From an uncultured Spirochaetota bacterium (lineage in GTDB: Bacteria > Spirochaetota > Brevinematia > Brevinematales > JAOACQ01), in assembly GCA_963835575.1 (NCBI GenBank), contig CAWIGG010000006.1, positions 64,001-128,000 on the forward strand: a stretch of DNA of 64,000 nucleotides, given 5' to 3'. The notes under the pieces are model-generated. The model searched no databases. It saw only the letters and a list, made by a program, of their open reading frames with translations, and had not been told where the DNA came from. Position 1 is the stretch's first letter. The number at the start of each line of letters is the position of its first letter. This document shows positions 14,821 to 49,141 of this stretch, in pieces. The position numbers and the translations under genes were made by a program.

Positions 14821-15292
14821 TCCGCGAAGCCACGCGAATACACGCTAATTCTAATTTTTAGTACTGGCAAATCTTTTCCATTCCAGTTTATTTTTCGAAC
14901 CAAAATTTATTATAAGTCCCAGAGTTAAACCCGTGGCTTTTAAGTAATTTAATAGCTGTGCTTCATCTTTGGAAGTGATCTTTTCTTCAACTTTCAGTTC
15001 AATAATTATTTTATTAAAGCATATTAAATCGGCAATATATTCTTTTTGAAGAACTCTCTCTTTATAATTAATACTTAAACGTTTTTGAGATTCATATGGA
15101 ATATGCCGCATTTTTAATTCAATTTCAAGAGCTTCTTGATAAACCGCCTCTAAAAACCCAATTCCCAGTTCATTCTGAACTTCAATGGCACAACCTATAA
15201 TTTTGAAAACTTCATCTTTAAAAATTAAATCAACCGGCATACAAAAATCCTGTTTTTAATTCATTTTATTTTAATTCGCGTGCCTTAGCGGA
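14821..15292 (-). mobile_element. Putative GxxExxY element (gene flanked by tandem-unit inverted arms)
   Basis: TCCGCGAAGCCACGCGAATACACGCTAA ... ATTCGCGTGCCTTAGCGGA around an AT-rich gene; mobility inferred. Confidence 0.6.
14851..15240 (-). CDS. GxxExxY protein (PD-(D/E)xK-type nuclease family)
   Basis: GFLEAVY, ADLI...IELK, QLLNYLK, LIINFG. Confidence 0.93.
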   Translation of the reverse strand: MPVDLIFKDEVFKIIGCAIEVQNELGIGFLEAVYQEALEIELKMRHIPYESQKRLSINYKERVLQKEYIADLICFNKIIIELKVEEKITSKDEAQLLNYLKATGLTLGLIINFGSKNKLEWKRFASTKN

Positions 15293-15307
15293 CTATCCGA
15301 TTCCTAA

Positions 15308-16165
15308 TTATTTCCTTATCAGAGCTACAATAATCACCAGTGCCGCTAAAAACCATCTGTAATATGCGAAGACGCCTGTGGAGTTCTTCTGCAGAAACCT
15401 CAGAAGGAATTTGATGCAGAAAAAGCCGGTGACCGCCGCGGTCAAAGAACCGGCGATAAAGAACGCCAAGTCATTATGCATAAAATCGGACAGTTTTATG
15501 GTCTTATGAAGATCGTACAGGCCCTTCAGCCCGGCGCCCGCGATGATCGGCGCGGAAAGTAGGAATGAAAAGCGCGCGGCGGACTCGCGCGTGAGGCCCA
15601 GGGCCATTCCGGCGGTGATGGTGCTTCCCGACCGCGACACCCCGGGAAATATCGCCAGCGCCTGCGCGAGGCCGATCAGGGACGCGTCTTTAGCCGTCAT
15701 CTCTTCCATCCGGCGGGTGTGCTTGATCAGTCTGTCGGCCGCGAAAAGAAGCCCGCCCATCAGGGCTATGATGATCCCCATCGCGATCATCGCGGAGGGA
15801 TTGATGGGGGTTGTATGAAAGAGCTTATCAATTTTGCTTTCAAAAAATACCCCGGCCAGACCTCCCGGTATACAGCCGATGATCAAAAACCAGACAAGAC
15901 GCCGGTCGAATATGCCTTTTATTTTGCGTTCGGCAATGCTCTGCACGCCGGCTTTGATCAGCCGCGCCCAATCCGGGGCGAAGAAGACGATCAACGCGAG
16001 AAGCGTCCCCATATGAAGGGCGATGTCGAAAGAAAGGCCCGTCAGGACCGGGTCATTCCAGCCGAAAAGCCAGCGTATGATGACCAGATGTGCCGAGCTG
16101 GAGATGGGGATAAATTCCGTCAAGCCCTGAACTATGCCGAGGATGACCGCCTGTAAAAAAGTCAT
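15308..16165 (-). CDS. uppP: Undecaprenyl-diphosphatase
   Basis: GIVQGLTEFIPISSSAH, PGVSRSGSTI, ARFSFLLS. Confidence 0.97.
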   Translation of the reverse strand: MTFLQAVILGIVQGLTEFIPISSSAHLVIIRWLFGWNDPVLTGLSFDIALHMGTLLALIVFFAPDWARLIKAGVQSIAERKIKGIFDRRLVWFLIIGCIPGGLAGVFFESKIDKLFHTTPINPSAMIAMGIIIALMGGLLFAADRLIKHTRRMEEMTAKDASLIGLAQALAIFPGVSRSGSTITAGMALGLTRESAARFSFLLSAPIIAGAGLKGLYDLHKTIKLSDFMHNDLAFFIAGSLTAAVTGFFCIKFLLRFLQKNSTGVFAYYRWFLAALVIIVALIRK

Positions 16166-16295
16166 GTTAAACTCCCTGATTTTTTTTTAAGGTGATATTA
16201 TATTGTGTTTCTGATTAAAAATCAAAACATCCCGGTCTATTGCTTTTATTGTGGATTTTTTTGCCCTAAACTAAAATATGCCCGGATTGATTTAT

Positions 16296-16354
16296 GGGCA
16301 GTTCCAAAAACTAAAAATTTATCAGATATTTCCACAATAAGTTTTGGAACTGCC
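16296..16354. repeat. 59-bp GGCAGTTCCAAAA hairpin repeat
   Basis: Near-identical to 32075-32133; 13-bp terminal inverted repeat. Confidence 0.85.
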
Positions 16355-16391
16355 ACTATATAAAAGAGAAATAGCAATCCGGATAAATGAT

Positions 16392-17711
16392 ATGCGGGAA
16401 ATATTAGTGAAAAGAAATGCTGTATTATTTTACATTTTATTATCTTTTTTATTAACATCACCGGTCCATTCTTATATCATACATTCAATCAGCATTGTCA
16501 GCAACACAAAAACGAAGAATTCCATAATAGAGCAGGAACTGCTTTTTAAGAAGGGTGACACTTATTCCACTTTAGAGCTTCCGGCCGTCATCAGCAACAG
16601 CGCTCAGAATATTAAAAACCTGGGCATCTTCAGCGAAGTTAAAATAGGTTATATTATAATCTCAAATTCCGCGGCTGATAATGCCGCGGACTGTCCGGTC
16701 GATGTTATAGTCGCGGCCGTTGACAAATGGACTTTGTTCCCGGTCCCCTATTATTTTTATGATAATAAAACCGGGCATATGATCGGATTTCTGATCGAGG
16801 AGGGCAATCTATTCGGCCTGAACCAGCAGCTCGATCTGGAAGGCCAGTATGTGACAGTCCCGGATTTTAAAGACATTGAAATAACTTATGATTATCCCAG
16901 GGTCTCGGGTAGTTATTATAATTTTGAGGTTAAGCTGGCCTATCAGGATTTTCTGGATTCGCATTATGATAATAATACGCTTGATTATCTTTCAAGGACC
17001 GTGGAGTGGGATTTTTATACGAAAGCGGACCGCGTTTTCCCGGTCAGCGGCAGCCGGTGGGATATTTACGGGGATATTACCGTCAATCTTATTACCAATA
17101 AAGTCGGCTTAAACAGCATCAATACCGTTCCGGTAAATAGGACCCTGACGTATCTCGGGATCGGCGCCGGTCAGGGCCTGATCAACAGGGACGGCGGCAC
17201 CGTCTGGGGCGATGATAATTATATCTGGTTCGGCCTGTCACCGCTGGATTCCGGCTGGAAAACGGAATTACAGCACAGTAAGTTCTTCGCCGTTTTTAAT
17301 AAAAGCGTTATCGGATACAGGCTGAGGGCCCGCCTCAGCCCGACCGAGGACTCGCCGCTGGATCTGGATTCGATCAGGGGAATAAAACTGGGGGATGTCA
17401 GGGGAAATTACATTTTTTACGGGAATATAGATTTCCGTATTTATATTCTGACTTTTGACTGGCCGACAAAACTTGAATTTTTTATCCCGCTGTTTTTCGA
17501 TTTCGGCAGCGGCTTCAGGAACGGCGAGGCCGCTGATATTTCAAAAACAATTTATACTATCGGGGCCGGGGTCCGGTTTTATCCCCTGGAACTGGGCGAT
17601 AAAGATTCGGCGTTCAGGTTCGATATCGGCGTTAATATGCCTGACCTTTTAAGCGGGGAAAGTTTCGAGAATTACATTTATATCGCCTTCAGTTTTTCCG
17701 AATATTTTTAA
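16392..17711 (+). CDS. POTRA-domain BamA/TamA-like outer membrane protein
   Basis: Signal peptide; POTRA motifs (NTKTKNSII; NLGIFSEV); EGNLFG; IRG; C-terminal Phe; the TTG start in the ORF track lies inside a repeat. Confidence 0.75.
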   Translation: MREILVKRNAVLFYILLSFLLTSPVHSYIIHSISIVSNTKTKNSIIEQELLFKKGDTYSTLELPAVISNSAQNIKNLGIFSEVKIGYIIISNSAADNAADCPVDVIVAAVDKWTLFPVPYYFYDNKTGHMIGFLIEEGNLFGLNQQLDLEGQYVTVPDFKDIEITYDYPRVSGSYYNFEVKLAYQDFLDSHYDNNTLDYLSRTVEWDFYTKADRVFPVSGSRWDIYGDITVNLITNKVGLNSINTVPVNRTLTYLGIGAGQGLINRDGGTVWGDDNYIWFGLSPLDSGWKTELQHSKFFAVFNKSVIGYRLRARLSPTEDSPLDLDSIRGIKLGDVRGNYIFYGNIDFRIYILTFDWPTKLEFFIPLFFDFGSGFRNGEAADISKTIYTIGAGVRFYPLELGDKDSAFRFDIGVNMPDLLSGESFENYIYIAFSFSEYF

Positions 17712-17721
17712 AGGAGGCCGC

Positions 17722-18587
17722 ATGACGCGCTCGACATGGCTGCACCTCAGGATCCCTTTTTCTTTATTTTTAATGCCCGTCTTTCTTCTTTCAATCACGG
17801 CAGCTCATGATATCGATATCTTTAAGCTCATTCTTTCTTTTGTCATTATCCATCTCTTACTTTATCCGGCGTCCAACGGCTTTAATTCGTATTATGACAG
17901 GGACGAGGAAAGCATCGGCGGCCTGAAAAACCCTCCGGCCGTGACAAAAGACCTCCTCCGGGTCTCGCTTCTGTTTGATCTGGCCGCTCTACTGTTCGGT
18001 TTTTTCATCAGCGCGCAGTTTGTCCTGTGTTTATTCATTTACGGCCTCGCCTCGAAGGCCTACAGTCATGATAAAATCCGCTTGAAAAAAAGGCCCATCG
18101 CGGGCTGGCTCGGCACGGGTATTGTCCAGGGCGCCTTTACATTTCTTATGGCATACGGCGCGTTTGATAAAACCGGGTATAATGATCTTTTCAGGCCGGA
18201 AATTATCCAGCTGGCGGCTTTGACAAGCGTTTTTCTGCTGGCTTCCTATCCTATGACACAGGTCTATCAGCACGGCGAGGACGGCCGGCGGGGGACAGGA
18301 CCATATCCCTTGTTTTAGGCATAAAAGGGACTTTTATCTTTACGGCCGTTTTATTCGCCGCCGTGACATTGTGCTTCTTCGCTTATTATTATTTTTTTAA
18401 GGGGCTTTTGCCTGCTTTCATTTTTATCTGCTTTCAACTGCCGGTCATTATTTATTTTTTGTTCTGGCTCAGGCGGGTTTACCGGAATGAGAAAGGGGCC
18501 GATTTTGCATCAGCCATGAAGCTGAATATTATTTCCTCGGCCTCGATGAGTTTATTCTGCGCTGTCCTGTTGATTTTTTTCCGTTAG
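17722..18587 (+). pseudogene. UbiA prenyltransferase family protein with a -1 frameshift (possible sequencing error)
   Basis: NSYYDRDE and YQHGED motifs; one extra G in the G5 run 18290-18294 restores RRGDRTISLVLG in frame with ORF 18363-18587. Confidence 0.8.
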
Positions 18588-18769
18588 CAGGATATTTAAA
18601 ATTCCCGGCGGATTCTTAACCATGATCATTGACTATCTTTTTTCCTGTGATAAAATATTGGACTTTATAGAATAATTTTGATTATATTTTAATTACTATT
18701 AAGAATAAAGAGCAGATAAATCCGTTTGACGGCTGATATATGAAAACATAAAGAAGAGGATATTTATTT

Positions 18770-19333
18770 ATGAAAGAACTGGTTAAATGCAAATCATGCG
18801 GCTATATTATGGAAAAAGGAAAACTCAAGGATAAATGCCCCGCCTGCGGTGTCCCCGCCGCCATGTTTGAGCCTTATGCGGAAAAGATTTCTTCTCCCCG
18901 GCGGAAATTCATCCTTTCGCTCGACATCCATCCCGTTATCGTGCATTTTCCTCAGGCGTTTACAGTTACTATTCTGGTATTGTCAATAATAGCCGCTTTG
19001 ATAAAAGGCGGCGTACAGGCTTCACTTTTGACGACTGTCGGCGTTCTGTCCTGCTGTCTGCCGCTGGTCGTACTGGGGGCTTTCCTGGCCGGCCTAATGG
19101 ACGGAAAAATCCGCTTCCGGAGGGTAACGACGCCGATCCTGGTCAAAAAGATAATTTTAGCGGGCCTTTTCTTCCTGCTTTCAATCGCCATTCTTTTACT
19201 CAATATATTTTATAAGCTGGATAATCCGGCAGTCCTGTACGCGGTTATAATACTGAGCGCGGGATGCCTGGTTTGCGGCAGTATTTTGGCGAAGTATGGA
19301 GTCAGCCTGCTCGAGGCGAAATTCCCGGGATAA
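18770..19333 (+). CDS. Rubredoxin-like domain fused to a membrane domain (DUF2231-like)
   Basis: CKSCGY..CPACG; HPVIVHFP; four TM segments. Confidence 0.75.
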   Translation: MKELVKCKSCGYIMEKGKLKDKCPACGVPAAMFEPYAEKISSPRRKFILSLDIHPVIVHFPQAFTVTILVLSIIAALIKGGVQASLLTTVGVLSCCLPLVVLGAFLAGLMDGKIRFRRVTTPILVKKIILAGLFFLLSIAILLLNIFYKLDNPAVLYAVIILSAGCLVCGSILAKYGVSLLEAKFPG

Positions 19334-19346
19334 TGCCAAATAAATA

Positions 19347-19448
19347 GCCACAGAATGACACGGAAACGCACTGAAATATTAATTGGTGTAATAAAAAATT
19401 CTGCCTATGCTTTTTTTTATTTCTGTGTTTTTCCGTGAAACTTGTGGC
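19347..19448. repeat. Gene-less tandem-unit inverted element (CACAGAA type)
   Basis: GCCACAGAATGACACGGAAACGCACTGAAAT ... ATTTCTGTGTTTTTCCGTGAAACTTGTGGC. Confidence 0.75.
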
Positions 19449-19497
19449 GAGCCTGCCGAATCCATTCTGAGGCAGAATATTATAAAAGGAGATATAT

Positions 19498-19746
19498 ATG
19501 AAGAATTCCATCACTCTGGGCATCGTTCTATTAATCATCGGGCTCATCGTTGGATATATCATTTTCGGAAAAGTCGCCGGCCAGTATATTTCCATCCTGA
19601 ATCTTCTGGGTTTAAAAACCGATTTCGGGCATAAGGTTTTAAATGCTGTCATAGGCATTGAAACGATCAGGATCAATATACTTCTCTGCGGGGCGGGCGG
19701 GTTTGCGGCCGGGTTTCTACTGGGCACGCTTGGAAAGAAAAGATAG
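19498..19746 (+). CDS. Small membrane protein
   Basis: AGGAG RBS; two hydrophobic segments. Confidence 0.65.
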   Translation: MKNSITLGIVLLIIGLIVGYIIFGKVAGQYISILNLLGLKTDFGHKVLNAVIGIETIRINILLCGAGGFAAGFLLGTLGKKR

Positions 19747-19800
19747 CGGAGAGCTGTGCTGCTTCGCAGCGCAGCCGTGATCGAGAATGTCCCCGGCGAC

Positions 19801-19993
19801 CAGACTGTGTAAAAAGAGCGTTCCCTGAGCGCCGCACTGAGTTTATCGAAGTGTGATTTGCCGAAGGCAAATTGTATCGAAGGGGACCCTATGTTATGCT
19901 CCCTTCGATGGTTCTGCAAGCTCACCACGAGTACAAGCGTAAAAGCAGGGAGAACGTACTCAGGGAGCGTTTTTTTACTTTTTACACAGTCTG
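19801..19993. mobile_element. MITE with IS1182-like ends
   Basis: CAGACTGTGTAAAAAG ... CTTTTTACACAGTCTG, matching the ends of the IS at 51052-52752. Confidence 0.75.
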
Positions 19994-20278
19994 GTCGCAT
20001 TCCATAAATACCTGTTTTCAACCATCTGCATACGGCATTTCACCGAGTAAAAGTTAAAGATGTCTTAATGAATGACTAAATCCTATAAAATCCGCCTCAT
20101 CCGTGAAAATCCGCGTGAACAATCGGATATTACAAAAATGCTTCTTCATTTCAAGTCTTTAATTGTTAAATCATGACTTCGTTAATATTTCCGCGGCTGA
20201 TTCCCCGCCGATTCTTGAACTTTATCTTCCATTATAATAAAATAATGCGATATCATAACAGAGGAGAAAAAGCGTTTT

Positions 20279-21178
20279 ATGAAAGTCTTTATGACAGGCG
20301 GTATGGGTTTTATCGGTTCATCAATTGTTATGACGCTGGTCAAAGCCGGGCACGAAGTAACGGTCCTTGCCAGGAACCCGGATAAAATCCCTCTTTTTAA
20401 AAAAACAGAAGGGATCAGGGTCATCAAAGGCGGTATGGAGGATTTGAACATAATTGAGAAAAATCTCCCCGGCCATGACGCCTGCATCCACAACGCCCTT
20501 TACTGGGGTAATTCCGCCGTGGAAATGCTGCAGAAGGACACGTTTTCCTCCGTCTGGCTTTTTGAGAAATCAGCCGGGGCCGGCGTCAAGCGCCTTATTT
20601 ATACTTCATCCACAGCCGCGCTGGGGGATTTCAGGCCTGACATGAACGAGGAGATGAAATCAAAACCCAACAATTATTACTGCGCGACAAAGGCGGCAAG
20701 CGAGGAATACCTTCTGGCGCTTTCTTATCAGCACCCCATGCGCTGCAATATTATCCGCCCCGGTTATACCGTGGGAAATCCCGTTGTCGAGGGCGCGCCG
20801 ATTGAGAACGACTCCCGCTTCCGTGACATTGTGAAAGCCGCGCTGGCTGGAAATGATATCCGCCTGGTCAAACAGGACGGGACGCAGTTTATCTGGGCCG
20901 GCGACCTCGCGCGGATCTATCTGGCTGTCCTGGAATCGAAAGTCAACAGGGAAATCTATTTCGGCCTGGGAAGCGAATGGGTTTCGTGGGAGAGGATAGC
21001 GCAAAAAGCCATAGAGTTTACCGGGTCAAAAAGCAGGATCGTTCTGGAGGACAAAGGATACGGCAAAGATCCTTACCTGTTTGATCTCAGCAAAATAAAG
21101 AAAGAGTTCGGCTTTTCATTTAAATCCTGGGATATCATAACGAAACATCTGGAATATCTGGCGCAGGTTTTAAGGTAA
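20279..21178 (+). CDS. NAD-dependent epimerase/dehydratase (extended SDR)
   Basis: TGGMGFIG, YTSS, YCATK (YxxxK). Confidence 0.9.
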   Translation: MKVFMTGGMGFIGSSIVMTLVKAGHEVTVLARNPDKIPLFKKTEGIRVIKGGMEDLNIIEKNLPGHDACIHNALYWGNSAVEMLQKDTFSSVWLFEKSAGAGVKRLIYTSSTAALGDFRPDMNEEMKSKPNNYYCATKAASEEYLLALSYQHPMRCNIIRPGYTVGNPVVEGAPIENDSRFRDIVKAALAGNDIRLVKQDGTQFIWAGDLARIYLAVLESKVNREIYFGLGSEWVSWERIAQKAIEFTGSKSRIVLEDKGYGKDPYLFDLSKIKKEFGFSFKSWDIITKHLEYLAQVLR

Positions 21179-21244
21179 TATGTATAAAATAACTAATAGT
21201 GTAAAAATGAGGCATGGAAAAAAATAAGTTTGCATAAAAAGGTT

Positions 21245-21333
21245 GTCATAGCGAGCATGCCGCTTTGGTGTGCAGACAGATTGCTTCGCGCTATGGTCAG
21301 AAGCGAAGGAGAAGGCATGACGCTCGCAAAGAC
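21245..21333. repeat. Degenerate GTCATTGCGAG-family repeat
   Basis: GTCATAGCGAGC...CAGATTGCTTCG...GCTCGCAAAGAC; lacks the first inner arm. Confidence 0.65.
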
Positions 21334-21363
21334 GCGCTATGAATGGAGAGGGAGTACGAAAGC

Positions 21364-21508
21364 GTCATTGCGAGGGGATGGATTTCTACTATGACGAAAG
21401 TCATAGTCCGAAGCAATCTGTATGCGCATTTAGGCATGTTTGGTGTGCAGGCAGATTGCCTCGTATTATAAATAATGGCGAGGTTTAATTTCTGTGACTC
21501 GCAATGAC
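21364..21508. repeat. 145-bp GTCATTGCGAG-family palindromic repeat
   Basis: GTCATTGCGAG..CGAAGCAATCTG..CAGATTGCCTCG..CTCGCAATGAC. Confidence 0.85.
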
Positions 21509-21530
21509 AGCTTTGTAACAGGAGAATGTA

Positions 21531-23249: not shown

Positions 23250-23381
23250 GCGGCAGTTTTAAAAGCAGAGGCAAATCCATACCTTGTTTACAGGGAAAGA
23301 GAACTATGTTATAATCCATAATAGTTTGAGGTTTCAATATTTGAAAAAATATTATTATAATAATAAAAGGAGGGATTATTT

Positions 23382-24263
23382 ATGAAAACAAAAATATTGG
23401 TCATCATTCTACTGCTTCTCTCATGTGTGATGTATGCGAAGAAGCCCAGGATCGCCATTATCACTTTTGAGTACAAAGCCGGTTCCGCAGAGGGCAGTTG
23501 GGCAGTCGGGGACGGCATTTCAGACATGCTGGCAACCGCGCTTTTTAAATCAGGAAAGTTTGACGTTATGGAGCGGGCCAAGATGGAGAGCATGCTGGAA
23601 GAGCAGAAACTCGGGATGACCGGCATGGTCACCCCTGAATCCGCGGCAAAAATGGGCAAGATACTGGGCGTGCAGTTTATTGTAGTCGGCAGCGTCAATC
23701 AATTCGGACAGAAAACAGATAAAACAAAAGCCTTGGGCATCGAGGTCAATACCACAACCGCAAGGGTGGCGACGGATGTCAGGATCATAAATGTGGAAAC
23801 AGGCAGGCTCCTGGGCGCTGAAAGCGGAAAGGGGGAAGAGACTGCCGTAGGCGGATCCATTGAAAACGCCGATCTGCTTCCCACAGACGTCGCATTCGGT
23901 TCCACCGGCTTTGATGAGACCATAATCGGTAAAGCGACAAAGAAATGCGTGGATGATCTTGTGGACCAGTTCGGCAAATCATTCGCCAATCAGACCCTGG
24001 AAGGAAAAATCATGAAAGTATCTGAAGACAAGGTTTATATCAATCTGGGTAAAGATTCCGGAATTGCGGTCGGCCAGGTGTTTGACGTGATGCAGAAGGG
24101 AGAGGAATTGATCGATCCCGATACAGGCGAGAGCCTGGGAAGCGAGGACAAAAAAATCGGTTCTGTAAAAGTTACGGAAGTTAAGGAAAAATTAGCTCTT
24201 GCGGATATTGTCGACGGCAAAGACAAGATCAAACAGAATGACATCGTAGTTCAGAAAAAATAA
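23382..24263 (+). CDS. CsgG/HfaB-family protein with a FlgT-like C-terminal domain
   Basis: Signal peptide; F.V.ER..LEEQ; GKILGV; VYINLG; DPDTGESLG. Confidence 0.8.
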   Translation: MKTKILVIILLLLSCVMYAKKPRIAIITFEYKAGSAEGSWAVGDGISDMLATALFKSGKFDVMERAKMESMLEEQKLGMTGMVTPESAAKMGKILGVQFIVVGSVNQFGQKTDKTKALGIEVNTTTARVATDVRIINVETGRLLGAESGKGEETAVGGSIENADLLPTDVAFGSTGFDETIIGKATKKCVDDLVDQFGKSFANQTLEGKIMKVSEDKVYINLGKDSGIAVGQVFDVMQKGEELIDPDTGESLGSEDKKIGSVKVTEVKEKLALADIVDGKDKIKQNDIVVQKK

Positions 24264-24523
24264 AAAAACAGACCAATTAATTCTTTATCACGAAAGCTGA
24301 TGTTCCCCGGCCGCTGACCAGGGTTTCTCCGGGAGGCAGTGCCGGGGATCATCAGGCCTTTAATTAAACCGCAGGTCAAAGAATAGTCAAAACAAAAATC
24401 TATCTTCTGGATTTGACTTTTGTGTTGATTTTAATTATTTTGAGGTAAAAGACATTAATTTATTATTCATCATAATAAGATTATAGCTATGCCAACTATT
24501 TTATGGAGAAGGAGTAACGAAAT

Positions 24524-24940
24524 GGAACCACAGATTTCACAGACTTGTAGTGAGCTTGCCGAACTATGACACAGATTATAATTTTGTAAATATAAACGGA
24601 AAGCTTGGTTGGTTAGCCCGATGAACCACACTACAAGTCAGTGAAATCATTATGTAATTATGATTATGGAAAAAGAAAAGAAGAGTGATGAGCAAGCATA
24701 TGAAGTTATTGGAACGGCACAGTATACCTGTTAACCAAAACGTAGTACATAAGATGAGAAATGATCCTATAGGTTTTATGGTTTTTGTTTTCAGAAAAAA
24801 TTTAACCGATTCCAGTTAGTATTTTTAGTAAAAAACAGAAAATATATTATTCGCGCAATAATTCTGTATAGATTTTACAGAAAATATCTGTGAAATCAGT
24901 GTAATGGTTCGACTGACGCTCACCACGGCGTCTGTGGTTT
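24524..24940. repeat. CACAGAT-type element carrying a GxxExxY N-terminal remnant
   Basis: AACCACAGATTTCACAGA..ACACAGAT / ATCTGTGAAATCAGTGTAA..TCTGTGGTT arms; 24666-24734 encodes MEKEKKSDEQAYEVIGTA, similar to the N-terminus at 43875. Confidence 0.75.
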
Positions 24941-24998
24941 CAACTCGTAAAATTGAAATTCCTGAAAACACTTTAAATAATAATACAATGAGGAATTT

Positions 24999-26083: not shown

Positions 26084-26321
26084 GGAACCACAGATTTCAC
26101 AGATAGCACAGATTATATTTTTGAAATAGTGAAAGCAAGTTCGCGATGAGTTTCTTGGCAATATTGACTAGGATGAAACTTAATTCAGAATAGGAACCAT
26201 TGAAGGAAATTCAGTTTACTGATTTAATTTGGGTAAATGTTAATAAATTCAAATTATTCTACTATAATTCCATATGGATTTCACAGAAAGTATCTGTGAA
26301 ATCAGTGTAATCTGTGGTTCC
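26084..26321. repeat. Gene-less CACAGAT-type element
   Basis: GGAACCACAGATTTCACAGATAGCACAGAT ... ATCTGTGAAATCAGTGTAATCTGTGGTTCC. Confidence 0.85.
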
Positions 26322-33218: not shown

Positions 33219-34863
33219 CCCGGATTATTCACCTGAAAAAAAGTATAAAAAAAGCCGCGTAACTTTACTCTTTATGATATAATTAATTGCGACCTAAAAA
33301 TACCCCAAAGAGGAGATACGCGGTGAAAACAGTATGTCATAAACAAGAAGAAAAATCAAGCGGTTTTGCCTTTTTAGGCAAGACTATTGAGATGGACTGG
33401 AACGGCGGCGACATATCCACTGACGGCGGGCTGTTTCTGGTATCCGGGCTCTTAAAAAAGACCGGAATTATCAATAGAATATCCGGTTGTATTGAGGATT
33501 GCAGGGACCAGGACCGGATAATTCATGAAATGAGTGAATTGATCGGACAACGGGTCAGCCAAATGATCATGGGGTATGAAGACACCAACGACGCGGGAGT
33601 ATTACGGTATGACCCGATGTTTAAATTCGCGGCAGGGCGTTTACCTGAAAGCGGAGATACCCTGTCCAGCCAGCCGACGCTGTCCAGGCTTGAGAACAGC
33701 ATAAACCTTCGGGATATAACGAAGCTTGATTTCTGTATGACGGACTGGTACATTGACAGCTTGATAGAGCGTAAAGCGGAAAGTGTTGTTCTTGACATAG
33801 ACGGCACGGATGATCCGACGCATGGTAAACAGGAAGGAAGCCTGTTCAACGGTTTTTATGAACAAACGATGTACTCACCGCTGATTGTTTGTGACGGAGA
33901 TACCGGAGACCTTGCGGCGATTAAACTGCGGCAGGGAAACGCGGGTCCGGCAAAGGACGCGCTTGCTATGATCAGGAGAATTGTTTTGGCAATAAGGAGG
34001 CGACAACCGGAGATCCGGATAATCCTGCGAGGTGACGCCGGATTTGAAAACCCGAAGATATACGAATATTGCGAACAAAATGATCTCCATTATATTCTGG
34101 GAATAAAGGGTTACCGGAGATTGGAGAAGAGGACAAGAAAGCTATCCCGCAGGGCAAAGACATATTTTCAAAAAAGCGGGAAAGAAAAGACGCTTCATAC
34201 GAATTTCAAATACCGTGCACAAAGCTGGGAAAAAGAACGAATGATTATCGCCCGGATACGCTGCAATGAATTGGGACAGGACACCCGTTATCTGATAACC
34301 AATTGGAAATTTTCAAAGGCAAGGTATGCATACAGATTCTATGCGAAGCGTGGAGATATGGAAAACCGGATCAAGGAACTGAAAAAGGATATGAATCTTG
34401 ACCGTTTGAGCTGCCATCGATATATGGCAAATTATTTCCGGCTGATTCTTGCGGGTTTTGCCTATCAATGCATGCAGCGCTTAAGGAAGGGATTGAAAGG
34501 TACAGAATATGAGAAAGCGCAAGCCGACACTATACGGTTAAAAATTCTGAAAGTTGCTGTACAGGTAAAAGAAACAGTCCGGAGAGTATGGCTGCATTTT
34601 TGCTCAAGTTTCACTGAAAAAGCGGTATTTCAAAGGCTCTCGGACAGCTTTGCGTAATGAAAGCCTTTCTGGATGTTTTTGACTCCGCTTAAAGAAGGGG
34701 GAAACTGCGCCCTTGTAACTGCAAAAAACAGATTTTTGAAAAGTTAGAAAGGATTGGACGGAAAAACGGAAGGTTAACTGACAAATTTATGCGGCCGCTT
34801 GAACAGCCGGGCAGTTTTTTATAGAAAATACACCCTCTGTGGGGGTGAGATGAATAATGCGGG
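33219..34863 (+). mobile_element. IS1380-family insertion sequence
   Basis: IRs CCCGGATTATTCACCT / AGATGAATAATGCGGG; short (G)ATA flank duplication, exact boundary ambiguous. Confidence 0.9.
33323..34657 (+). CDS. IS1380-family transposase
   Basis: STDGGL, GYEDTND, SQPTLSRLEN, LDIDGT, RGDAGF, YAKRGDMENRIKE; GTG start after AGGAG. Confidence 0.96.
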   Translation: MKTVCHKQEEKSSGFAFLGKTIEMDWNGGDISTDGGLFLVSGLLKKTGIINRISGCIEDCRDQDRIIHEMSELIGQRVSQMIMGYEDTNDAGVLRYDPMFKFAAGRLPESGDTLSSQPTLSRLENSINLRDITKLDFCMTDWYIDSLIERKAESVVLDIDGTDDPTHGKQEGSLFNGFYEQTMYSPLIVCDGDTGDLAAIKLRQGNAGPAKDALAMIRRIVLAIRRRQPEIRIILRGDAGFENPKIYEYCEQNDLHYILGIKGYRRLEKRTRKLSRRAKTYFQKSGKEKTLHTNFKYRAQSWEKERMIIARIRCNELGQDTRYLITNWKFSKARYAYRFYAKRGDMENRIKELKKDMNLDRLSCHRYMANYFRLILAGFAYQCMQRLRKGLKGTEYEKAQADTIRLKILKVAVQVKETVRRVWLHFCSSFTEKAVFQRLSDSFA

Positions 34864-35953: not shown

Positions 35954-36818
<865 letters not shown>

Positions 36819-38672: not shown

Positions 38673-38696
38673 TTATCCTATTTTGAAGGAGAAAAA

Positions 38697-39455: not shown

Positions 39456-39602
39456 TCAGGGCAAAAGTTAATAACCAAAGAGATGTGAATTTCACCAAGA
39501 AGAACGGACCAATTTTTCCTGGTGCCGCTTCAATATTGAATCTTCCGCTAAGCCGCGCGAAGTCACGCCAATAATTAAAAAGTATTCTTGAAAAATTAAT
39601 AA

Positions 39603-39685: not shown

Positions 39686-39713
39686 AAACAAATACCAATC
39701 TATCCTTCTTTTA

Positions 39714-41641: not shown

Positions 41642-41850
41642 ATTCAGCCCCTCTATTAAATTGTATATCAGATAAATTACACAGACGTATGATGGAAGAG
41701 TAATTTATAGACATTTTATTATATAATAATAATCCCGGCGAAACAATAAAAAAACAGGAATGTTTAAAAACAATTTTAAATCAAATTTCCATTTTATTTA
41801 CTTTCCTTTATGACTTTATTAAAATTATGCCTGAAAGATGGGGTTTTATT

Positions 41851-43746
41851 ATGCGGTTGAAACATATTAATAAACACGTCCGGTTTTTTCATCTGATTAT
41901 TTTATGCTTTTTTTTAACGGGATTATCTTTCGGCGATGCCTGGAAGCTGGTCTGGAGCGATGAATTCAACAGCAATCAGATCGACAGGACAAAATGGAAT
42001 TTCGCGCTCGGGGGCATCGGCTTCGGAAATAATGAGCTGGAGTATTATACCGACAGGCCGCAGAACGCCTCTGTGGAAAACGGCAGTCTGATCATAAAAG
42101 CCGTAAAAGAACCCTATATGAGCTGTTCTTATACTTCGGCAAAAATGACGACGCAGAGGAAAGCATTCTGGACATACGGCCGGTTTGAGATAAGAGCGAA
42201 GCTTCCCTCGGGCAAAGGCATCTGGCCGGCATTCTGGCTGATGCCGGAGGATTGGGAAAGCCCGAATAGCGAATACGGCGGATGGCCTTCATGCGGCGAG
42301 GCTGACATTATGGAGCTGATCGGAAGCGATCCTTCGACTGTATTCGGGACCCTTCATTATGGGGTTCCCTGGACTCACACGGGAGGTTCAAACACATTGC
42401 CCGCCGGGATGAGCTTTTCCGATGATTATCATATCTTCGCCCTGGAATGGGAACCGGGAGAATTCCGCTGGTATGTTGACGGCAGGCTTTACCTGACGCA
42501 GAACAGCTGGTTCGGCAGGAGGGAGACGGAAGCTTATGAATACACATACCCGGCCCCTTTTGACCGGGATTTCTTCCTTCAGCTTAACCTGGCCGTCGGC
42601 GGGAACTGGCCGGGCAGTCCCGGCAGTAATACGCGGTTTCCTCAAACATTAGCAATTGATTATGTCCGTGTGTACCGGAAGGACAATTACCCGCCGCTGA
42701 AGGAAAGGAAGGCGCCGGTTATCACTGAAAGCGTTGTACCGCTGAGGCCGGCGCTGCCTGATGGAAATCTTATCTATAACGGGAATTTCGATGAGACAAA
42801 CATAAAAGAATACCCTCTTTACAGTGTTGTCGAGGATTCCATGATTTCGGACACAGCGGCAAACGGTTACTGGCAGTTCCTGACCGGCTTCGCGGGCGAG
42901 GGGACTTTTTCGATTAATAAAGGCGAATTCAGGGCCGGCATAAAACTGCCGGGCAGGGAAAGCTATTCCATCCAGCTTGTCCAGATCCCCATCCTGCTTG
43001 AGAAGGAAGCGGCATATAAGCTGTCCTTTGACGCCCGGGGGGAAAAACCGCGTACGATCATGGTCAAGCTGACGGAAATCGGCGGTTCCTGGACGGCTTA
43101 TTCAGGCCTGAAATTTTTCAACCTGACAACTAAAATGGAAAATTACAGCTTTGTCTTTACCATGAAAGGGGAAACGGATAAAAGGGCGCGCCTGGAATTC
43201 AATATGGGCCTGGACCTGTCATCCGTTTATCTTGATAATATCAGTTTTACAAAGATAAACAGCGCGAAGCTGGAAAAAACGCCTTTACCGGACGGCAATT
43301 ATATTTACAACGGCACGTTTGACCAGGGATCAAACAGGATGGTTGAGTGGCATTTGACGGCAGACGGCGGAGCTTCAGCAGAAGCTTCTGTTGGAAGTGA
43401 AATTCAGGAACGGAACGCAAAAATCACGATAAAAGATCCGGGGAAGGAAGCATCTTCCATAATGTTCTATCAGGAAGGACTGAGAATTGAAAAGGGAAAA
43501 TCGTATATCGTCCGGTTTTCCGCGAGGTCTTCAGAGAAGAGGAGCATCCAGGCCGGGTTAACCGGGAGCGGCAATGATCCGCGGTCTTATTACAATCAGA
43601 CGGTAATTCTTTCGCCCGATATGGAAATATACGCGCTTGAATTTAAAATGAAACAGGAGACCGATAAAAACGCGCGGCTGGTTTTCCGGCTGGGAAAAGA
43701 AAACCCGCAGGTTATTATTGACGATGTCAGTATGTTTGTAAAATAG
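41851..43746 (+). CDS. GH16 beta-1,3-glucanase-like enzyme with two CBM4/9-like modules
   Basis: WSDEF, GIWPAFW, GEADIME (ExDxxE), NLAVGG, DYVRVY; two NG.FD...IDD/LDN modules. Confidence 0.92.
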   Translation: MRLKHINKHVRFFHLIILCFFLTGLSFGDAWKLVWSDEFNSNQIDRTKWNFALGGIGFGNNELEYYTDRPQNASVENGSLIIKAVKEPYMSCSYTSAKMTTQRKAFWTYGRFEIRAKLPSGKGIWPAFWLMPEDWESPNSEYGGWPSCGEADIMELIGSDPSTVFGTLHYGVPWTHTGGSNTLPAGMSFSDDYHIFALEWEPGEFRWYVDGRLYLTQNSWFGRRETEAYEYTYPAPFDRDFFLQLNLAVGGNWPGSPGSNTRFPQTLAIDYVRVYRKDNYPPLKERKAPVITESVVPLRPALPDGNLIYNGNFDETNIKEYPLYSVVEDSMISDTAANGYWQFLTGFAGEGTFSINKGEFRAGIKLPGRESYSIQLVQIPILLEKEAAYKLSFDARGEKPRTIMVKLTEIGGSWTAYSGLKFFNLTTKMENYSFVFTMKGETDKRARLEFNMGLDLSSVYLDNISFTKINSAKLEKTPLPDGNYIYNGTFDQGSNRMVEWHLTADGGASAEASVGSEIQERNAKITIKDPGKEASSIMFYQEGLRIEKGKSYIVRFSARSSEKRSIQAGLTGSGNDPRSYYNQTVILSPDMEIYALEFKMKQETDKNARLVFRLGKENPQVIIDDVSMFVK

Positions 43747-43802
43747 TTTTTTTATTAGAAATAACTAATCATAGAGTATAATTCTTAAGTAATATGTGTT
43801 GT

Positions 43803-44354
43803 AACCACAGATTACACAGATGTCACAGATGATAATTTTGAAAGTATCAGTGTAATTATGCTATAATTGTGAATATGAAAAAAGAAGAAAGTAAAGATCG
43901 TCGGGCTTATGGGATTATTGGTGCGGCTATTGAGGCACACAAAGAATTAGGATCAGGATATCTGGAAGCAGTATATTAGGAAAGCCTTGAATTAGAATTT
44001 AAACTCAGAAAAATCCCTTATATATCTCACCCCATTCTTAAGGTTTTTTATAAAGATATTGAACTGAAAAAATATTATGTGCCTGATTTTATCGTATATA
44101 ATGAAGTGATTCTGGAAATTAAAGCGGAAAGATGTTTGACGAGAGTAGATGAGGCGCAAATAATAAACAGTTTAAAGAATTCGGGAATGAAAGTAGGTTT
44201 GCCGATTAATTTTGGTGAAAGCTCATTAAAATTCAAACGTTTTGTTTACTGAAACATATTTCATATTTCGTTTATTGTTAATAGAATGAATTCGAATTGA
44301 GATTTAATATTGATACCACAGAAATAATCTGTGAAATCAGTGAAATCTGTGGTT
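43803..44354 (+). mobile_element. Putative GxxExxY element, CACAGAT arm type
   Basis: AACCACAGATTACACAGATGTCACAGAT ... ATCTGTGAAATCAGTGAAATCTGTGGTT. Confidence 0.6.
43875..44252 (+). pseudogene. GxxExxY protein with an in-frame TAG (absent from the ORF track)
   Basis: MKKEESKDRRAYGIIGAAIEAHKELGSGYLEAVY*ESL...PDFI..ILEIKA..INFG..KRFVY; TAG at 43977 where the paralogues have Gln (CAR). Confidence 0.9.
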
Positions 44355-44444
44355 TCAGCCAAAAAAATTAAAAACTGAAAAAGTATACTATATAAGGATA
44401 TAATTCTATATCTTTTTCTGCCGATTCTATAACAGGAGTAGAAA

Positions 44445-46247
44445 ATGGCAAACGGTCAGGAAAACGGGATACTGGAAGCCTCGCAGGAATATTCCAGGAT
44501 GGCTGAGCTTCTCAAGGCGGAACGGGAGCCGGAAGCGGCCGCAATGGTCAAGCAGATCCTGGAATCCGGCGACAGCCTGCAGGACAAGATCCGCAAGATC
44601 GAGCTTATTGACGCGCAGGAAATCGGCAAAGTCATCGATGAAGCCCCTCTCAGTAAAGAGGAGGTTCAGGAGATCATCCGGAATAAGCATGTTTCCACCG
44701 ATGAGGTTGCCCAGAAGAACAGTGAAAAGATCAAGATAAAGCAGATGAGGAACCCATTTTTCTTCTATTTCTTCAAGGATTATAAGAAGATCCGTGAATT
44801 CGGGAAATATTCGGGATTTATCCGTTTCGGATTGAATATCTCGGGGATCAAATTTAATTATAATCCCGTAAAATCCCTTTTTGCCGGATTGAAGAAGGAC
44901 GCCGGCGAACTGATCAATGTTTTGAACTTTGTGCTGGACAAGGGCTGGATGGATCTGGACAAGCTTGATTACAACCTGATCATCGTATTCAAACGCCTCT
45001 GCGAAGCCTTAACCGCGGTAAAAGCGCCGAAGTCTTCCTATTCATTGAAGCAGATGCTGGAGAATTATAAAGAGATTGAAACGTATTTTTTAACCTGTCA
45101 ATACCAGGTTGAATATCCCGATATCATCCGTTCCAGCATTATCCAGGTTCTGGAAAAACAGCACAGGCCGGCCGGACTAGTCGAGCTGGCGGAAATTCAG
45201 GTGCGGCGGATTTTGTTTCAGGACGATGCGCCCTGCCTTTATAATTGTATCCTTGCCCTGAATATGAGCGAATACCGGCGTTTTATAAAAATAGGCGATA
45301 TGATCCGAAACCAGCAGGGCGGCGTTATCAATACGTTTTCTTTTGACTGCACGGCCCTTATTCAGCAGAAGATCAACGTTTATATTAATGATAAAACAAA
45401 GGCCTGGCAGAACCTTCTCCAGGAAAAGGCCGAGATCGGCAAAATCCAGTATTTTCTCAAGCATTTCATCCGGCAGGATTCCTCGGGCTACAGAAGCTAC
45501 AGCTTCACCCTGCTGACGGATTTTTATGATTTTTCCTTCTATGAAGTAAAAGAAGAGAGCTTTAGTTATGATAAGAACAATACCGCCAGGCTTGCCCTGA
45601 AATTTTTCGGCAAGTTTATGAGCGAGTTTGAGAATTTCTTTATTGACAGGATCGATATAGAGGGTTACGGGCCCGTCAGGGTTTTCAGCAGGGAGGTTTT
45701 CCAGCTGGAGATCGACAAGCTGAAGCGCGGGCTCGGCAAATTTTCGGACGCGAGCTATACATATCCCATCATTTCGAGGCGCGAGTTTTTTGAGCAGAAG
45801 ACCTCCAAGAAGGAAGTCATGCCGCCGCCGCCGGTGCTCACTTTGATACAGACAGCGGATTCCCTTTCCGATATACTGGTCGGCATCGGCACCAAGCTGG
45901 GAAATATCCATATCAACCAGAAAAAAGGCCCTTCCGCCAACGGTTCTCAGAGCAGTCTCGCCCCTCTCGAGATTTCCGTAACACGGTCGCATAATGTCAG
46001 TATTCCCTACTGGTCCAACAGGATCCTCAGCGCGGGATTTTTAAAAGACAAGTTTTTTTCCGACGCCGTGGCTACAATAGCCAGCTTATGCTTCCTCTCC
46101 GCCATATACTTTTATAATATGCGTCTCTATTCCATTCTGGAAAAAGAAATGAAGATAAGCAATATGATCGCTGAAACGCGAAAAAGCCTCGAGAGGCTGG
46201 CCGATGTGGTGACGTTTGAAAAAATCAGGAAAACGCAGTCGATTTAA
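44445..46247 (+). CDS. Hypothetical alpha-helical protein
   Basis: 600-aa ORF with AGGAG RBS; no motif recognised. Confidence 0.75.
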   Translation: MANGQENGILEASQEYSRMAELLKAEREPEAAAMVKQILESGDSLQDKIRKIELIDAQEIGKVIDEAPLSKEEVQEIIRNKHVSTDEVAQKNSEKIKIKQMRNPFFFYFFKDYKKIREFGKYSGFIRFGLNISGIKFNYNPVKSLFAGLKKDAGELINVLNFVLDKGWMDLDKLDYNLIIVFKRLCEALTAVKAPKSSYSLKQMLENYKEIETYFLTCQYQVEYPDIIRSSIIQVLEKQHRPAGLVELAEIQVRRILFQDDAPCLYNCILALNMSEYRRFIKIGDMIRNQQGGVINTFSFDCTALIQQKINVYINDKTKAWQNLLQEKAEIGKIQYFLKHFIRQDSSGYRSYSFTLLTDFYDFSFYEVKEESFSYDKNNTARLALKFFGKFMSEFENFFIDRIDIEGYGPVRVFSREVFQLEIDKLKRGLGKFSDASYTYPIISRREFFEQKTSKKEVMPPPPVLTLIQTADSLSDILVGIGTKLGNIHINQKKGPSANGSQSSLAPLEISVTRSHNVSIPYWSNRILSAGFLKDKFFSDAVATIASLCFLSAIYFYNMRLYSILEKEMKISNMIAETRKSLERLADVVTFEKIRKTQSI

Positions 46248-46536
46248 TTGATCATATTAAAATGAAGTTTCTGCGGACGCGGAATAATTTAAAACAGAAC
46301 TTTCTTATATTCAGGCCCGTTTTATAATATCTTCTTTCCTGCGGCAGGACAAATCATCCTTTTCTTGTATTGCGTGAATCATTTATTCTATACCTGATTG
46401 GTGCCCGATAATAAAAACAGGCGGCTCAACGGGAGGGTATCCGTCCGGCCGCCTGTCTATAGAGAGGTACTTTCTGATGAAGAGAATCGCGGTTTTCTAA
46501 TTATTAATTAATGGAGATTAATTGTATGAAGACGAG

Positions 46537-46655
46537 GGGGTTGTCCCTGTAAAGCCGTAATGGAATCCCGCCGGCGCATCGGTTCTGCTTCGCGGCGGGC
46601 TAAGTATAGGCTTTTGCCGCCGGCGGGTATCTATATAAAATTTTGGGGCAACCCC
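46537..46655. repeat. Small palindromic MITE-like element
   Basis: GGGGTTGTCCC ... GGGGCAACCCC with an internal CCCGCCGGCG/CGCCGGCGGG stem. Confidence 0.5.
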
Positions 46656-46712
46656 ATGAGACCCTGAAAAAAACCTCCTTTGTTTATTTGTTTTATAGGA
46701 AAGATTTTCAAA

Positions 46713-46762
46713 TACTACATTCGTAGTACATATAATATACTACGCGTGTAGTATTATGTCAA
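46713..46762 (-). promoter_or_regulatory. Minus-strand promoter with two BlaI/MecI-type operators
   Basis: TTGACA-17-TATATT on the minus strand; TACTAC-N4-GTAGTA at 46713-46728 and 46738-46753. Confidence 0.75.
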
Positions 46763-46900
46763 GTGTTTTTGAAAATATTTTTTCCTCCGGTATTGACAAA
46801 ATTGAATATTGCTTTTAAATAAATGTAATTAAATTAATGGACGCGGATTATCGGAAGACCGGATAATCTGCAAAATTATTAATATTCGGGAAACTGTTTT

Positions 46901-47491
46901 ATGTGTAAGGAATTTAGGTATTCAATACTTCATCTTTTAGCTGTGTTTTCATTAATTTTATTAATACTGAGCGCCTGCGATCTGCTTCAAGACCCCCCTT
47001 CCGACCGGCAGAAGACGCTGGGAGAATGGATGTATAACAGGGTAGTTTACATTGACGGCAGTTTTCAGACATATAACGGCAATATTATTACAATTACCTC
47101 CAGCGGCGGATCGGTCACAGTTTATACCAATTCTTCTTACACAGCTGTTGTTTTTAATGAAAAAAATTCATGTCTCTGGGAGACCTGTAATACAAACGGG
47201 AATATTATAACAAATACGGGAACCTGGTCCATAAAAGAAACGGACAAATTGCTGACTTTAACGAAGGTTAATTACACGAATATCCTTTTTATTTTTACTA
47301 ATGTTTATTTCGTTTATAATTATGCCTATACCTATGACTTTATTGATGATAATACTATAAAAATTACTGCTGAAATTGACAGCTATAACTGCATCTTTGA
47401 GAATAATACGCCGACAAATTATTCGACAAATAATATTGATATCTTTGCCGCCGCCGGGGTGAATTATGTTGAGATCGGAAAGATAAGATAG
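46901..47491 (+). CDS. Lipoprotein, lipocalin-like beta fold possible
   Basis: Lipobox LSAC; LGEW, TGTWS. Confidence 0.65.
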   Translation: MCKEFRYSILHLLAVFSLILLILSACDLLQDPPSDRQKTLGEWMYNRVVYIDGSFQTYNGNIITITSSGGSVTVYTNSSYTAVVFNEKNSCLWETCNTNGNIITNTGTWSIKETDKLLTLTKVNYTNILFIFTNVYFVYNYAYTYDFIDDNTIKITAEIDSYNCIFENNTPTNYSTNNIDIFAAAGVNYVEIGKIR

Positions 47492-47539
47492 GATCCGGTA
47501 TAATATAGTAAAGCGGATTAAAAAAATAAAACGGGAGAA

Positions 47540-47952
47540 ATGTTATTTTAGAGATAATTATTTCCGTCATCATCGCTATCTTTGTTCTGGCAGTGGTTAA
47601 TTTTGTGGTCAGGAAAAACATCTCCTTTGCCAGGAGGAATTATAAAACAAAAAACGTGGAGATCAATCTAAGCAGGACCCCATGCCCGGTCTGCGGCACA
47701 ATTATAAAGGAAGGGGAAAGGGTCAAAACAACCGCTTATTCCCTGGGAAAGGAAAAGCTGGTCCTTGTTTACGGCTGTCCCGCCTGTTATCCCCCCGGTA
47801 AAGTCATAAAAAGAATATGCCCGGTCTGCAAAAATGAATTGAGAAATAAGGATTATATCCTGGCCAAAATGTGGGAAGAGGAAAACAAACTCCGTCTTCA
47901 TATCATGGGCTGTTCGATATGCAAACCGAATTCTTTTGTTGTAAAAAGCTGA
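47540..47952 (+). pseudogene. Membrane-anchored double zinc-ribbon protein with a -1 slip just after the ATG
   Basis: Four CxxC pairs; GGAG-ATG 47540; one more T in 47546-47549 puts the TM segment in frame with ORF 47593. Confidence 0.6.
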
Positions 47953-48103
47953 ATTCCCCCGTTCCGCGGACAGTAAAAAATTAAACTTCAGGGCTGGCAA
48001 TTTTTCCAAACTATAATATAATTATTGGGCTTTTGAATTATTGATTAAAAAAAATATATTCAATCTGGCTGTCATTTTTCTGTAAGGATAGAGGAGGCTT
48101 TTT

Positions 48104-48655
48104 ATGCTAGTACCGGCTGTATTAGGCGGCATTGTTGTAGTGATATTGCTCTGGGTGATGATGGCTTATAACGGTTTTATCAAGCTGAGGAACCAGGCGG
48201 ATGAATCCTGGAGCGGTATAGACGTCCAGCTCAAGCGGCGCTATGACCTGATCCCGAACCTTGTGGAAACCGTCAAAGGCTACGCCAAGCATGAGCAGTC
48301 CACTTTCGAGAAAGTGGTCCAGGCCAGGAACGCGGCCATGAGCGCCCAGAAAGTGGAAGATAAAGCCCAGGCGGAGAACATGCTTTCAGGCGCCCTGAAA
48401 TCTATTTTTGCCCTCGCTGAAAACTATCCGGAGCTCAAGGCGAACCAGAATTTCCTCGATCTGCAGAAGAACCTGGCGGAAATTGAGGACCAGCTCCAGA
48501 ACGCCAGAAGATATTACAACGCCGTTGTCCGCGACTATAATATCCAGTGCGAAAGCTTCCCGTCTGTCATACTTGCCGGCATGTTCGGCTTCAAAAAACG
48601 GGCCTTCTTTGAAATAGCGGAAGCCGAAAAGCAGAATGTCAAGGTGCAGTTTTAA
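48104..48655 (+). CDS. lemA: LemA family protein
   Basis: IDVQLKRRYDLIPNLVETVKGYA.HE, AENYPELKANQNF, ARRYYN. Confidence 0.96.
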   Translation: MLVPAVLGGIVVVILLWVMMAYNGFIKLRNQADESWSGIDVQLKRRYDLIPNLVETVKGYAKHEQSTFEKVVQARNAAMSAQKVEDKAQAENMLSGALKSIFALAENYPELKANQNFLDLQKNLAEIEDQLQNARRYYNAVVRDYNIQCESFPSVILAGMFGFKKRAFFEIAEAEKQNVKVQF

Positions 48656-48669
48656 AGGGAACTGGGTTA

Positions 48670-49141
48670 TCCGCTAAGCCACGCCAAGGAACGCTAAGAA
48701 GAATATATAATTGGTAAAAAAAATGGCTGAAGATTTATTATTTAAGGAAGAAGTTTTTAAAATCATGGGTTGTGCTATGAAAGTGCAGGATGAGTTAGGG
48801 AACGGTTTTCTGGAAGCGGTTTATCAGGAAGCTTTAGAAATTGAATTAAAGCTCATGCAAATCCCTTTTGAATCTCAGAAAAGACTGAGAATTAATTATA
48901 AAGGACAGCTGCTTCAAAAAGAATATATTGCCGATTTAATATGCTTTGACAAAATAATATTGGAATTGAAAGTTGAAGAGAAGCTGACTTCTATTGATGA
49001 AGCTCAGATTTTAAATTATTTGAAAGTTACGGGTTTATCGCTTGGACTCATTATAAATTTCGGATCAAAGAAGAAACTTGAGTGGAAACGTTTTGCAAAC
49101 ACTCAACAATAACCTTAGCGTATCTTCGCGATCCTTAGCGG
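48670..49141 (+). mobile_element. Putative GxxExxY element, CGCTAA arm type, between lemA and DUF2207
   Basis: TCCGCTAAGCCACGCCAAGGAACGCTAAG ... CTTAGCGTATCTTCGCGATCCTTAGCGG. Confidence 0.65.
48723..49112 (+). CDS. GxxExxY protein
   Basis: GFLEAVY motif; 101/129 aa identical to the 14851-15240 protein by manual count. Confidence 0.93.
   Translation: MAEDLLFKEEVFKIMGCAMKVQDELGNGFLEAVYQEALEIELKLMQIPFESQKRLRINYKGQLLQKEYIADLICFDKIILELKVEEKLTSIDEAQILNYLKVTGLSLGLIINFGSKKKLEWKRFANTQQ

Follow-up and report, generated by a model that had tools for sequence, protein, structure and literature searches.

We analysed a window of 64 000 nucleotides (the whole stretch of DNA presented above, from contig CAWIGG010000006.1 of an uncultured Spirochaetota bacterium), which contains three genes of the GxxExxY family, each enclosed by a pair of inverted arms made of short tandem words; a gene together with its arms is called a cassette below. 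Gene 1 (14851–15240, minus strand) and gene 3 (48723–49112, plus strand, between lemA and a DUF2207 gene) are intact, each encoding 129 a.a., and their proteins share 78% identity. Gene 2 (43875–44252, plus strand) has an in-frame TAG at codon 35 and is therefore a pseudogene, so that only two of the three genes called full-length in a preliminary description of this DNA are intact. The arms of gene 1 belong to family A: the upstream (left) arm (15274–15298, minus strand) has two units of 10 nt and a TAGTC leader, and the downstream (right) arm (14816–14849, plus strand) has three units and a TCTTC leader. Gene 2 has arms of family Bt, the left one (43800–43833, plus strand) consisting of three units of 9 nt with the word CACAGAT and the right one lying at 44324–44357 (minus strand). 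The arms of gene 3 are found at 48664–48698 (left, plus strand, three units) and 49114–49147 (right, minus strand), and their period is 10 nt, as at gene 1.

The two arms of a cassette face inward as terminal inverted repeats, with complementarity of 89% for gene 1 (14821–14839 with 15274–15292), 85% for gene 2 (43800–43833 with 44324–44357) and 79% for gene 3 (48671–48698 with 49114–49141). From outer unit to outer unit the three cassettes measure ∼475, 546 and 469 bp, and the GC contents of the genes are 0.295, 0.328 and 0.326, as compared with 0.446 for the window. These measurements bear out what had been said of AT-rich genes, of their enclosure by two to three tandem units of 9–10 nt and the reverse complement of these units (above chance, by the genome-wide counts below), and of a total length of ∼470–550 bp. 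One arm alone is a non-palindromic run of tandem words, and a stem needs two arms. Each arm of gene 2 also has a short inner reverse copy of its word (43811–43856 and 44311–44357), which would permit local folding of each end; such inner copies are also seen at three other loci (L002, L003 and L011).

Nine GxxExxY loci were found in the genome, by tblastn and by a hidden Markov model (HMM) alike; arms are present at all nine, three of the nine appear to be broken, and the arm word varies with the protein clade. A generic arm pattern matches 503 arms in the genome and 22 in a third-order Markov simulated genome of equal length. About 500 arms lie beyond the GxxExxY loci, mostly without a gene, paired like with like and intergenic (468 out of 503 arms are intergenic by crude calls of open reading frames, ORFs). 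Adjacent arms less than 700 bp apart form 201 pairs, of which 114 face inward, 71 are in tandem and 16 face outward, and 95 of the 114 inward pairs join arms of the same word family. Convergent gaps between genes are enriched in arms (145 of 468 arms vs. 322 of 2076 gaps) and divergent gaps are depleted. In family A, the leader differs between the sides (TAATC on the left, TCTTC on the right) and conservation of the arm peaks at the outer unit; fixed transversions separate left arms from right arms.

Certain gene-less interiors are remnants of genes. Other gene-less pairs form subfamilies whose interiors are 68–77% alike (vs. a median of 46% in 630 comparisons) and whose flanks are unrelated, and the likeness stops a few bases beyond the first unit. 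Because interiors are shared and flanks are unrelated, the gene-less units have themselves been copied to unrelated sites. No clean empty paralogous site was seen within the genome among the matches listed. The longest direct repeats flanking 95 arm pairs are no different from those of shuffled pairs, which agrees with the earlier remark that there is no clear target-site duplication (TSD).

Gene-less copies are also found in the window, where the preliminary description had overlooked them. One of them, a family A element (14717–14807, minus strand; left arm 14773–14807, right arm 14717–14740), is located directly downstream of the gene 1 cassette. The other gene-less arm pairs, to which no strand was assigned, are at 12191–12328 and 19349–19437 (both of family Ba, with the word CACAGAA) and at 26089–26316 (family Bt). 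There are also single arms: one with a CACGGAT-type word (20099–20115, minus strand), one of family Bt (24886–24901, minus strand) and a right-type arm of family A (39546–39572, plus strand). It is true of the cassettes that they contain no transposase, as had been stated, but not of the window, which has four ordinary insertion sequence (IS) transposases elsewhere (8113–9363, 33287–34657, 51145–52641 and 61079–62536; Mutator family, DDE_Tnp_1_4, DUF772 plus DDE, and IS66).

Some arm pairs in the genome enclose other genes encoding 140–390 a.a. (G000:C4:357000-357719, C3:96930-98089, C2:480176-481037 and C4:112503-114165) and are possible cargo cassettes. At G000:C2:377388 (L030) the start codon apparently falls within the left arm, in which case the first residues of the protein would be encoded by the arm. 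A separate repeat that resembles a MITE (a miniature inverted-repeat transposable element) and starts with GGGCAGTTCCAAAAAC has ∼84 end-motif matches in the genome (e.g. at 16296 and 32075 of the window, and at G000:C5:148078 and C5:431974); a 217-bp copy with 98.6% identity is found inside the AT-rich interiors of two different arm pairs. A single gene for a four-helix-bundle protein (TIGR02436) is located at G000:C6:2193-2513.

A model in which the arms act as RNA stems was tried and is disfavoured: wobble-compatible mismatches show no strand bias (90 vs. 93), there is no match in Rfam, and the gene 3 cassette folds no better than its shuffles (z −0.62). As single-stranded DNA (ssDNA), one gene-less region folds well (z −3.5), the stem there linking arms of two neighbouring elements. 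A replication-strand bias seems unlikely as well, since left arms occur, by eye, on both strands in each GC-skew block. The search for Y1 transposases gave two weak matches in the genome, neither of them among the arm-enclosed ORFs listed.

The proteins of genes 1 and 3 match TIGR04256 with 143–144 bits (cut-off 35) and PF13366 with 139–140 bits (cut-off 22). PF13366 is the sole Pfam match, with no HUH Y1, GIY-YIG or DDE domain in the protein. Residue D71 is present in all 106 rows of the broad protein set, where the search pattern did not force it, and D71, E81, K83 and Q95 are invariant in an unforced, HMM-derived alignment of 19 rows. The AlphaFold model (pLDDT 90.6) has the core fold of restriction endonucleases. 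Its top Foldseek match is the Cas4 protein SSO0001 (E 6e-5), and a wide structure search returned Cas4, lambda exonuclease and restriction enzymes (best Z 8.1, with a root-mean-square deviation of 3.5 over 100 aligned residues); no solved structure of a relative was found by sequence search. The invariant D71, E81 and K83 and the predicted fold are in line with the homology to PD-(D/E)xK-type nucleases claimed earlier, and the fold that the model shares with these enzymes shows by itself no function. We take the QxxxY motif of the protein to recall nucleases of the RecB/Cas4/lambda type. Purifying selection is seen among the paralogues of this genome, in which about half of the fourfold sites differ vs. 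20–27% of the residues.

Among 30 relatives, whose shared kinship means that the counts are not independent, the GxxExxY gene is present in 10, and all 10 have at least 14 three-unit arms. Three of the 20 relatives without the gene also have at least 14 such arms (G001, G008 and G025, the last at 73% completeness), whereas the other 17 have between 0 and 5. For a wider sample, a degenerate DNA pattern (which biases the sample to one motif spacing) gave at least 122 loci in GTDB; 80 were taken with their flanks, and 77 of these had enough flank. At 61 of the 77 loci, the alignment of the upstream flank with the reverse-complemented downstream flank is better than those with all 60 control windows, and at 47 of the 77 the gene's own downstream flank is the top-ranked partner. 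The best alignment comes from an outward-facing copy in four of the 61 loci. These arms span many bacterial phyla, and the enrichment around GxxExxY genes of other genomes that the preliminary description had proposed to look for does exist.

A quick maximum-likelihood tree was made from 106 protein sequences (118 columns; many of its forks are unresolved). Of the 18 arm types whose last base is T or A, 15 fall within a single clade of 22 rows, and the last base of the arm (G vs. A/T) changes five times on the tree (87 labelled rows), as compared with 13–18 times in 300 shuffles. On this evidence from sequences, the arm word tracks the protein clade across GTDB. Armed GxxExxY genes are carried by four viral contigs (L033 and L035 by pattern, L032 and L034 by eye), a possible vehicle between hosts. 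Another locus, L031, is without arms and on a long branch.

Empty alleles are found beside filled ones in syntenic positions, together with gene-less and replaced alleles, as an element that moves had been expected to leave. At the gene 3 site, lemA and the DUF2207 gene adjoin without a cassette in G005. (The gap downstream of bacA in G004, tried as an empty site, is armless but has a different neighbour gene, and was excluded from the count.) Four orthologous slots were compared in three other genera, and their alleles range from filled through gene-less and single-armed to empty. In the first Flavobacterium slot, where 30 loci were ranked by likeness to a filled query and are thus biased to filled alleles, 24 are occupied by cassettes (arm types I, II and III) and six by a different repeat. 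The arm types change twice on the tree of 23 proteins (6–11 times in shuffles) vs. eight times on the tree of host flanks; arm type at this slot thus goes with the protein tree and not with the host flanks. At the second Flavobacterium slot (the best 30 of 251 genomes, chosen by left flank only), the gene is forward in six and reverse in 11, a gene-less hairpin is present in four and only the left arm in nine. Two sister genomes at this slot (L207 and L216) differ by an inversion of 649 bp, 93% identical, with both breakpoints within the ∼85-bp arms.

In Chryseobacterium, nine out of 30 loci of the slot are filled, all in the forward direction. Two of its alleles (L265 and L261) differ by a clean 506-bp indel, and the first left-arm unit remains in the empty allele as the stop codon of the upstream gene. 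The 5-bp repeat that bounds this indel was considered as a TSD and rejected: a microhomology deletion fits better, because the empty allele retains the first left-arm unit and the repeat is absent from other filled alleles. About 15 of the 21 gene-free alleles in this slot (L246–L272) have a GTCATTC...GAATGAC hairpin that looks, by eye, like the repeat (NTS/SRM) that goes with Ssn nucleases, and this slot would thus alternate between two repeat systems. Other tandem-word inverted repeats share slots with GxxExxY cassettes as well: a TGAAAC type in Flavobacterium and a GGCAGA type in a cyanobacterial genus (L192–L198, L234 and L237), two of them enclosing an unrelated gene.

The fourth slot, in the genus of Nostoc sp. 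106C, is present in 15 out of 15 genomes: four have cassettes of one kind by arm word and protein type, five have cassettes of another kind, three are empty, two have another repeat and one has another insert. The L242 cassette shares 99% identity with its counterparts in L239 and L241, whereas the flanks of L242 group with the three empty alleles. Between the L242 gene and those of L239 and L241, 2 out of 54 and 2 out of 55 fourfold sites differ (∼4%); for the flanking genes it is 74 and 69 out of 281 (∼25%). Informative sites are like the empty alleles at 11 out of 13 positions on the left (nearest at −96) and 16 out of 19 on the right (nearest at +62). Since the cassette is near-identical to those of L239 and L241 while the flanks side with the empty alleles, L242 has received its cassette recently and at the same site, along with a co-converted tract of <100 bp per side. 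A like synonymous gap is found for L231 and L232 (3/56 vs. 85/270).

Taking as observed the anatomy of the cassettes, the co-variation of word and clade, the exchange in the same slot between species, one inversion at the arms and the copying of gene-less units, we propose that the cassettes are an undescribed selfish element whose nuclease is predicted to cut its own arms, with host recombination completing the process; we give this proposal about even credence. The GxxExxY enzyme would recognise the 8–10-nt word of its own subfamily and cut at or beside its own arms, after which host recombination would copy, invert or delete the cassette. Resident genes would act in trans to move the gene-less pairs, which number several hundred, and the outcomes would be same-site transfer, inversion, gene loss and single-arm scars. 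Sequence-specific binding is suggested by the co-variation of word and clade and by the peak of conservation at the outer unit, cutting by the invariant catalytic residues and the fold, and repair by host recombination by the lack of both a TSD and a ligating domain. The preliminary description had the enzyme recognise its own hairpin arms; the match of arm word and protein clade speaks for the recognition but not for the hairpin, given non-palindromic arms, fixed left/right transversions and no G–U bias. Its mobile selfish element is likewise retained as far as same-site exchange, inversion and deletion go, but not as free IS-like transposition, for which near-identical gene-bearing copies and a TSD excess are lacking.

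Several points weigh against our proposal. Its weakest step is the arrival of a cassette at a new site: same-site exchange leaves the dispersal to hundreds of new sites unexplained. The co-conversion test concerns one cassette (L242) with few informative sites; on the left, the site at −276 agrees with the donors, and three right sites are unresolved. Host recombination alone can give inversion between 85-bp repeats and exchange of alleles among related species. No recent burst is seen, because gene-bearing copies in the genome do not exceed ∼79% identity and the best likeness of gene-less interiors is only 77%. Certain arm words in the genome have no cognate gene, two relatives that are 96–99% complete (G001 and G008) hold 17 and 32 arms and no gene, and 16 of the 77 GTDB loci have no scoring arm pair. 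Binding and cutting of the arms are predictions from sequence, and an arm-cutting nuclease would need a means of self-protection, at present hypothetical.

An alternative is a true transposase acting in the manner of RAYT or IS200, with a protein that cuts and joins, excises a folded arm-to-arm single strand and inserts it elsewhere without duplication. Dispersed gene-less pairs with shared interiors and unrelated flanks, likeness that stops just beyond the first unit (by a few bases), left ends that differ from right ends and no TSD excess are all as such an enzyme would leave them, and one gene-less region does fold well as ssDNA (if between arms of two neighbouring elements). We nevertheless consider this unlikely: we know of no tyrosine or serine linkage chemistry for a 129-a.a. 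PD-(D/E)xK domain, and in the one filled/empty pair analysed for co-conversion the two alleles are unlike in the final codons of the adjacent gene, a sign of replacement rather than clean insertion.

It is also conceivable that the gene and its repeat are a domesticated pair, the nuclease cleaving ssDNA at arm words as it enters or is replicated and adjusting recombination for the host, with mobility as a by-product. The layout of a gene between repeats is that of NTS-ssnA-NTS in the accessible text of PMC11893778, the paralogues are under purifying selection and slots with arms are hypervariable; however, the patchy presence (10 out of 30 relatives), the three broken copies out of nine and the successive replacements at one slot are more in keeping with a selfish element, and we regard domestication as quite improbable. 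Much the same low probability is given to a passenger gene, merely bracketed or regulated by arms that are moved by another enzyme or that form RNA stems like the intervening sequences of rRNA. A few arm pairs do enclose other genes, left arms of family A run with transcription more often than against it (38 to 16), arms favour the 3′ ends of genes, and they persist in genomes without the gene. But arm word and protein type co-segregate finely at shared slots, neither strand has the G–U bias of an RNA stem, Rfam gives no match, and the genome has only two weak Y1 matches, neither of them one of the listed arm-enclosed ORFs.

A broader reading is held tentatively, as somewhat less than an even prospect: minimal elements of a new class, found throughout the bacteria, would be mobilised by GxxExxY proteins, with a 130-a.a. 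PD-(D/E)xK nuclease reading arrays of 8–10-nt words whose sequence is specific to the subfamily, and any DNA between arms, cargo included, would be homed, inverted and dispersed by it. If so, these would be a family of very small site-specific nucleases whose target is readable from the DNA beside each gene. PF13366 occurs across many phyla and is listed as of unknown function in the accessible text of PMC3424549. In the accessible full text GxxExxY serves as a domain label, and no description of the link between gene and arms was found in the literature outside subscription journals and supplements. The arms name a candidate substrate for each subfamily, so that the function of GxxExxY could be probed using a single protein and a handful of oligonucleotides. 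Should the enzyme be what drives movement, it would be a third nuclease superfamily (after HUH and GIY-YIG) with the strategy of an enzyme plus a dispersed repeat. This would explain a repeat class that is large and has no annotation (∼500 arms in this genome), as well as the hypervariability of intergenic slots in Flavobacterium, Chryseobacterium and a cyanobacterial genus, and very small nucleases with predictable, diverse targets would become available.

MITEs and IS elements with multi-site ends (Tn7, Mu, IS21) have inverted ends of repeated protein-binding words and internally deleted derivatives. GxxExxY cassettes resemble MITEs and classical IS elements in their terminal inverted repeats, but have neither a DDE transposase nor a TSD excess. 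To our knowledge, free-standing homing endonucleases recognise the empty allele and not their own flanks, and they have neither inverted arms nor non-autonomous partners. They resemble the cassettes in entering the same intergenic site in related genomes with co-conversion of flanks (accessible text of PMC2988022 and PMC2790892), a trait found for one GxxExxY case, L242; PD-(D/E)XK is among the homing endonuclease families listed in the available part of PMC6083498. REPIN/RAYT, REPtrons and TIRtrons, as far as described in the accessible text of PMC3116915 and PMC3733652, are similar in that an enzyme gene is flanked by its own repeat, gene-less inverted extragenic doublets are many, a genome has several enzyme/repeat pairs, and self-mobility of the gene is low. 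In the same sources, however, RAYT and TIRYT are HUH Y1 transposases, whereas GxxExxY is of PD-(D/E)xK type, and repetitive extragenic palindromes (REPs) are palindromes with a GTAG tag, whereas the arms are non-palindromic runs of 8–10-nt words. The Ssn/SRM system (SsnA-NTS of Neisseria and others), in the accessible text of PMC11893778, shares a small single-domain nuclease gene with its cognate repeat on both sides, in hundreds of copies and specific to the subfamily; but Ssn is a GIY-YIG enzyme that cuts a 28-nt hairpin as ssDNA, and GxxExxY arms are tandem words in inward pairs, for which activity is only predicted. GxxExxY cassettes thus work like REPIN/RAYT and Ssn/NTS but belong to neither family: they fall outside REPIN/RAYT, TIRtrons and Ssn/SRM because the class of enzyme differs, and outside REPIN/RAYT also by the structure of the repeat.

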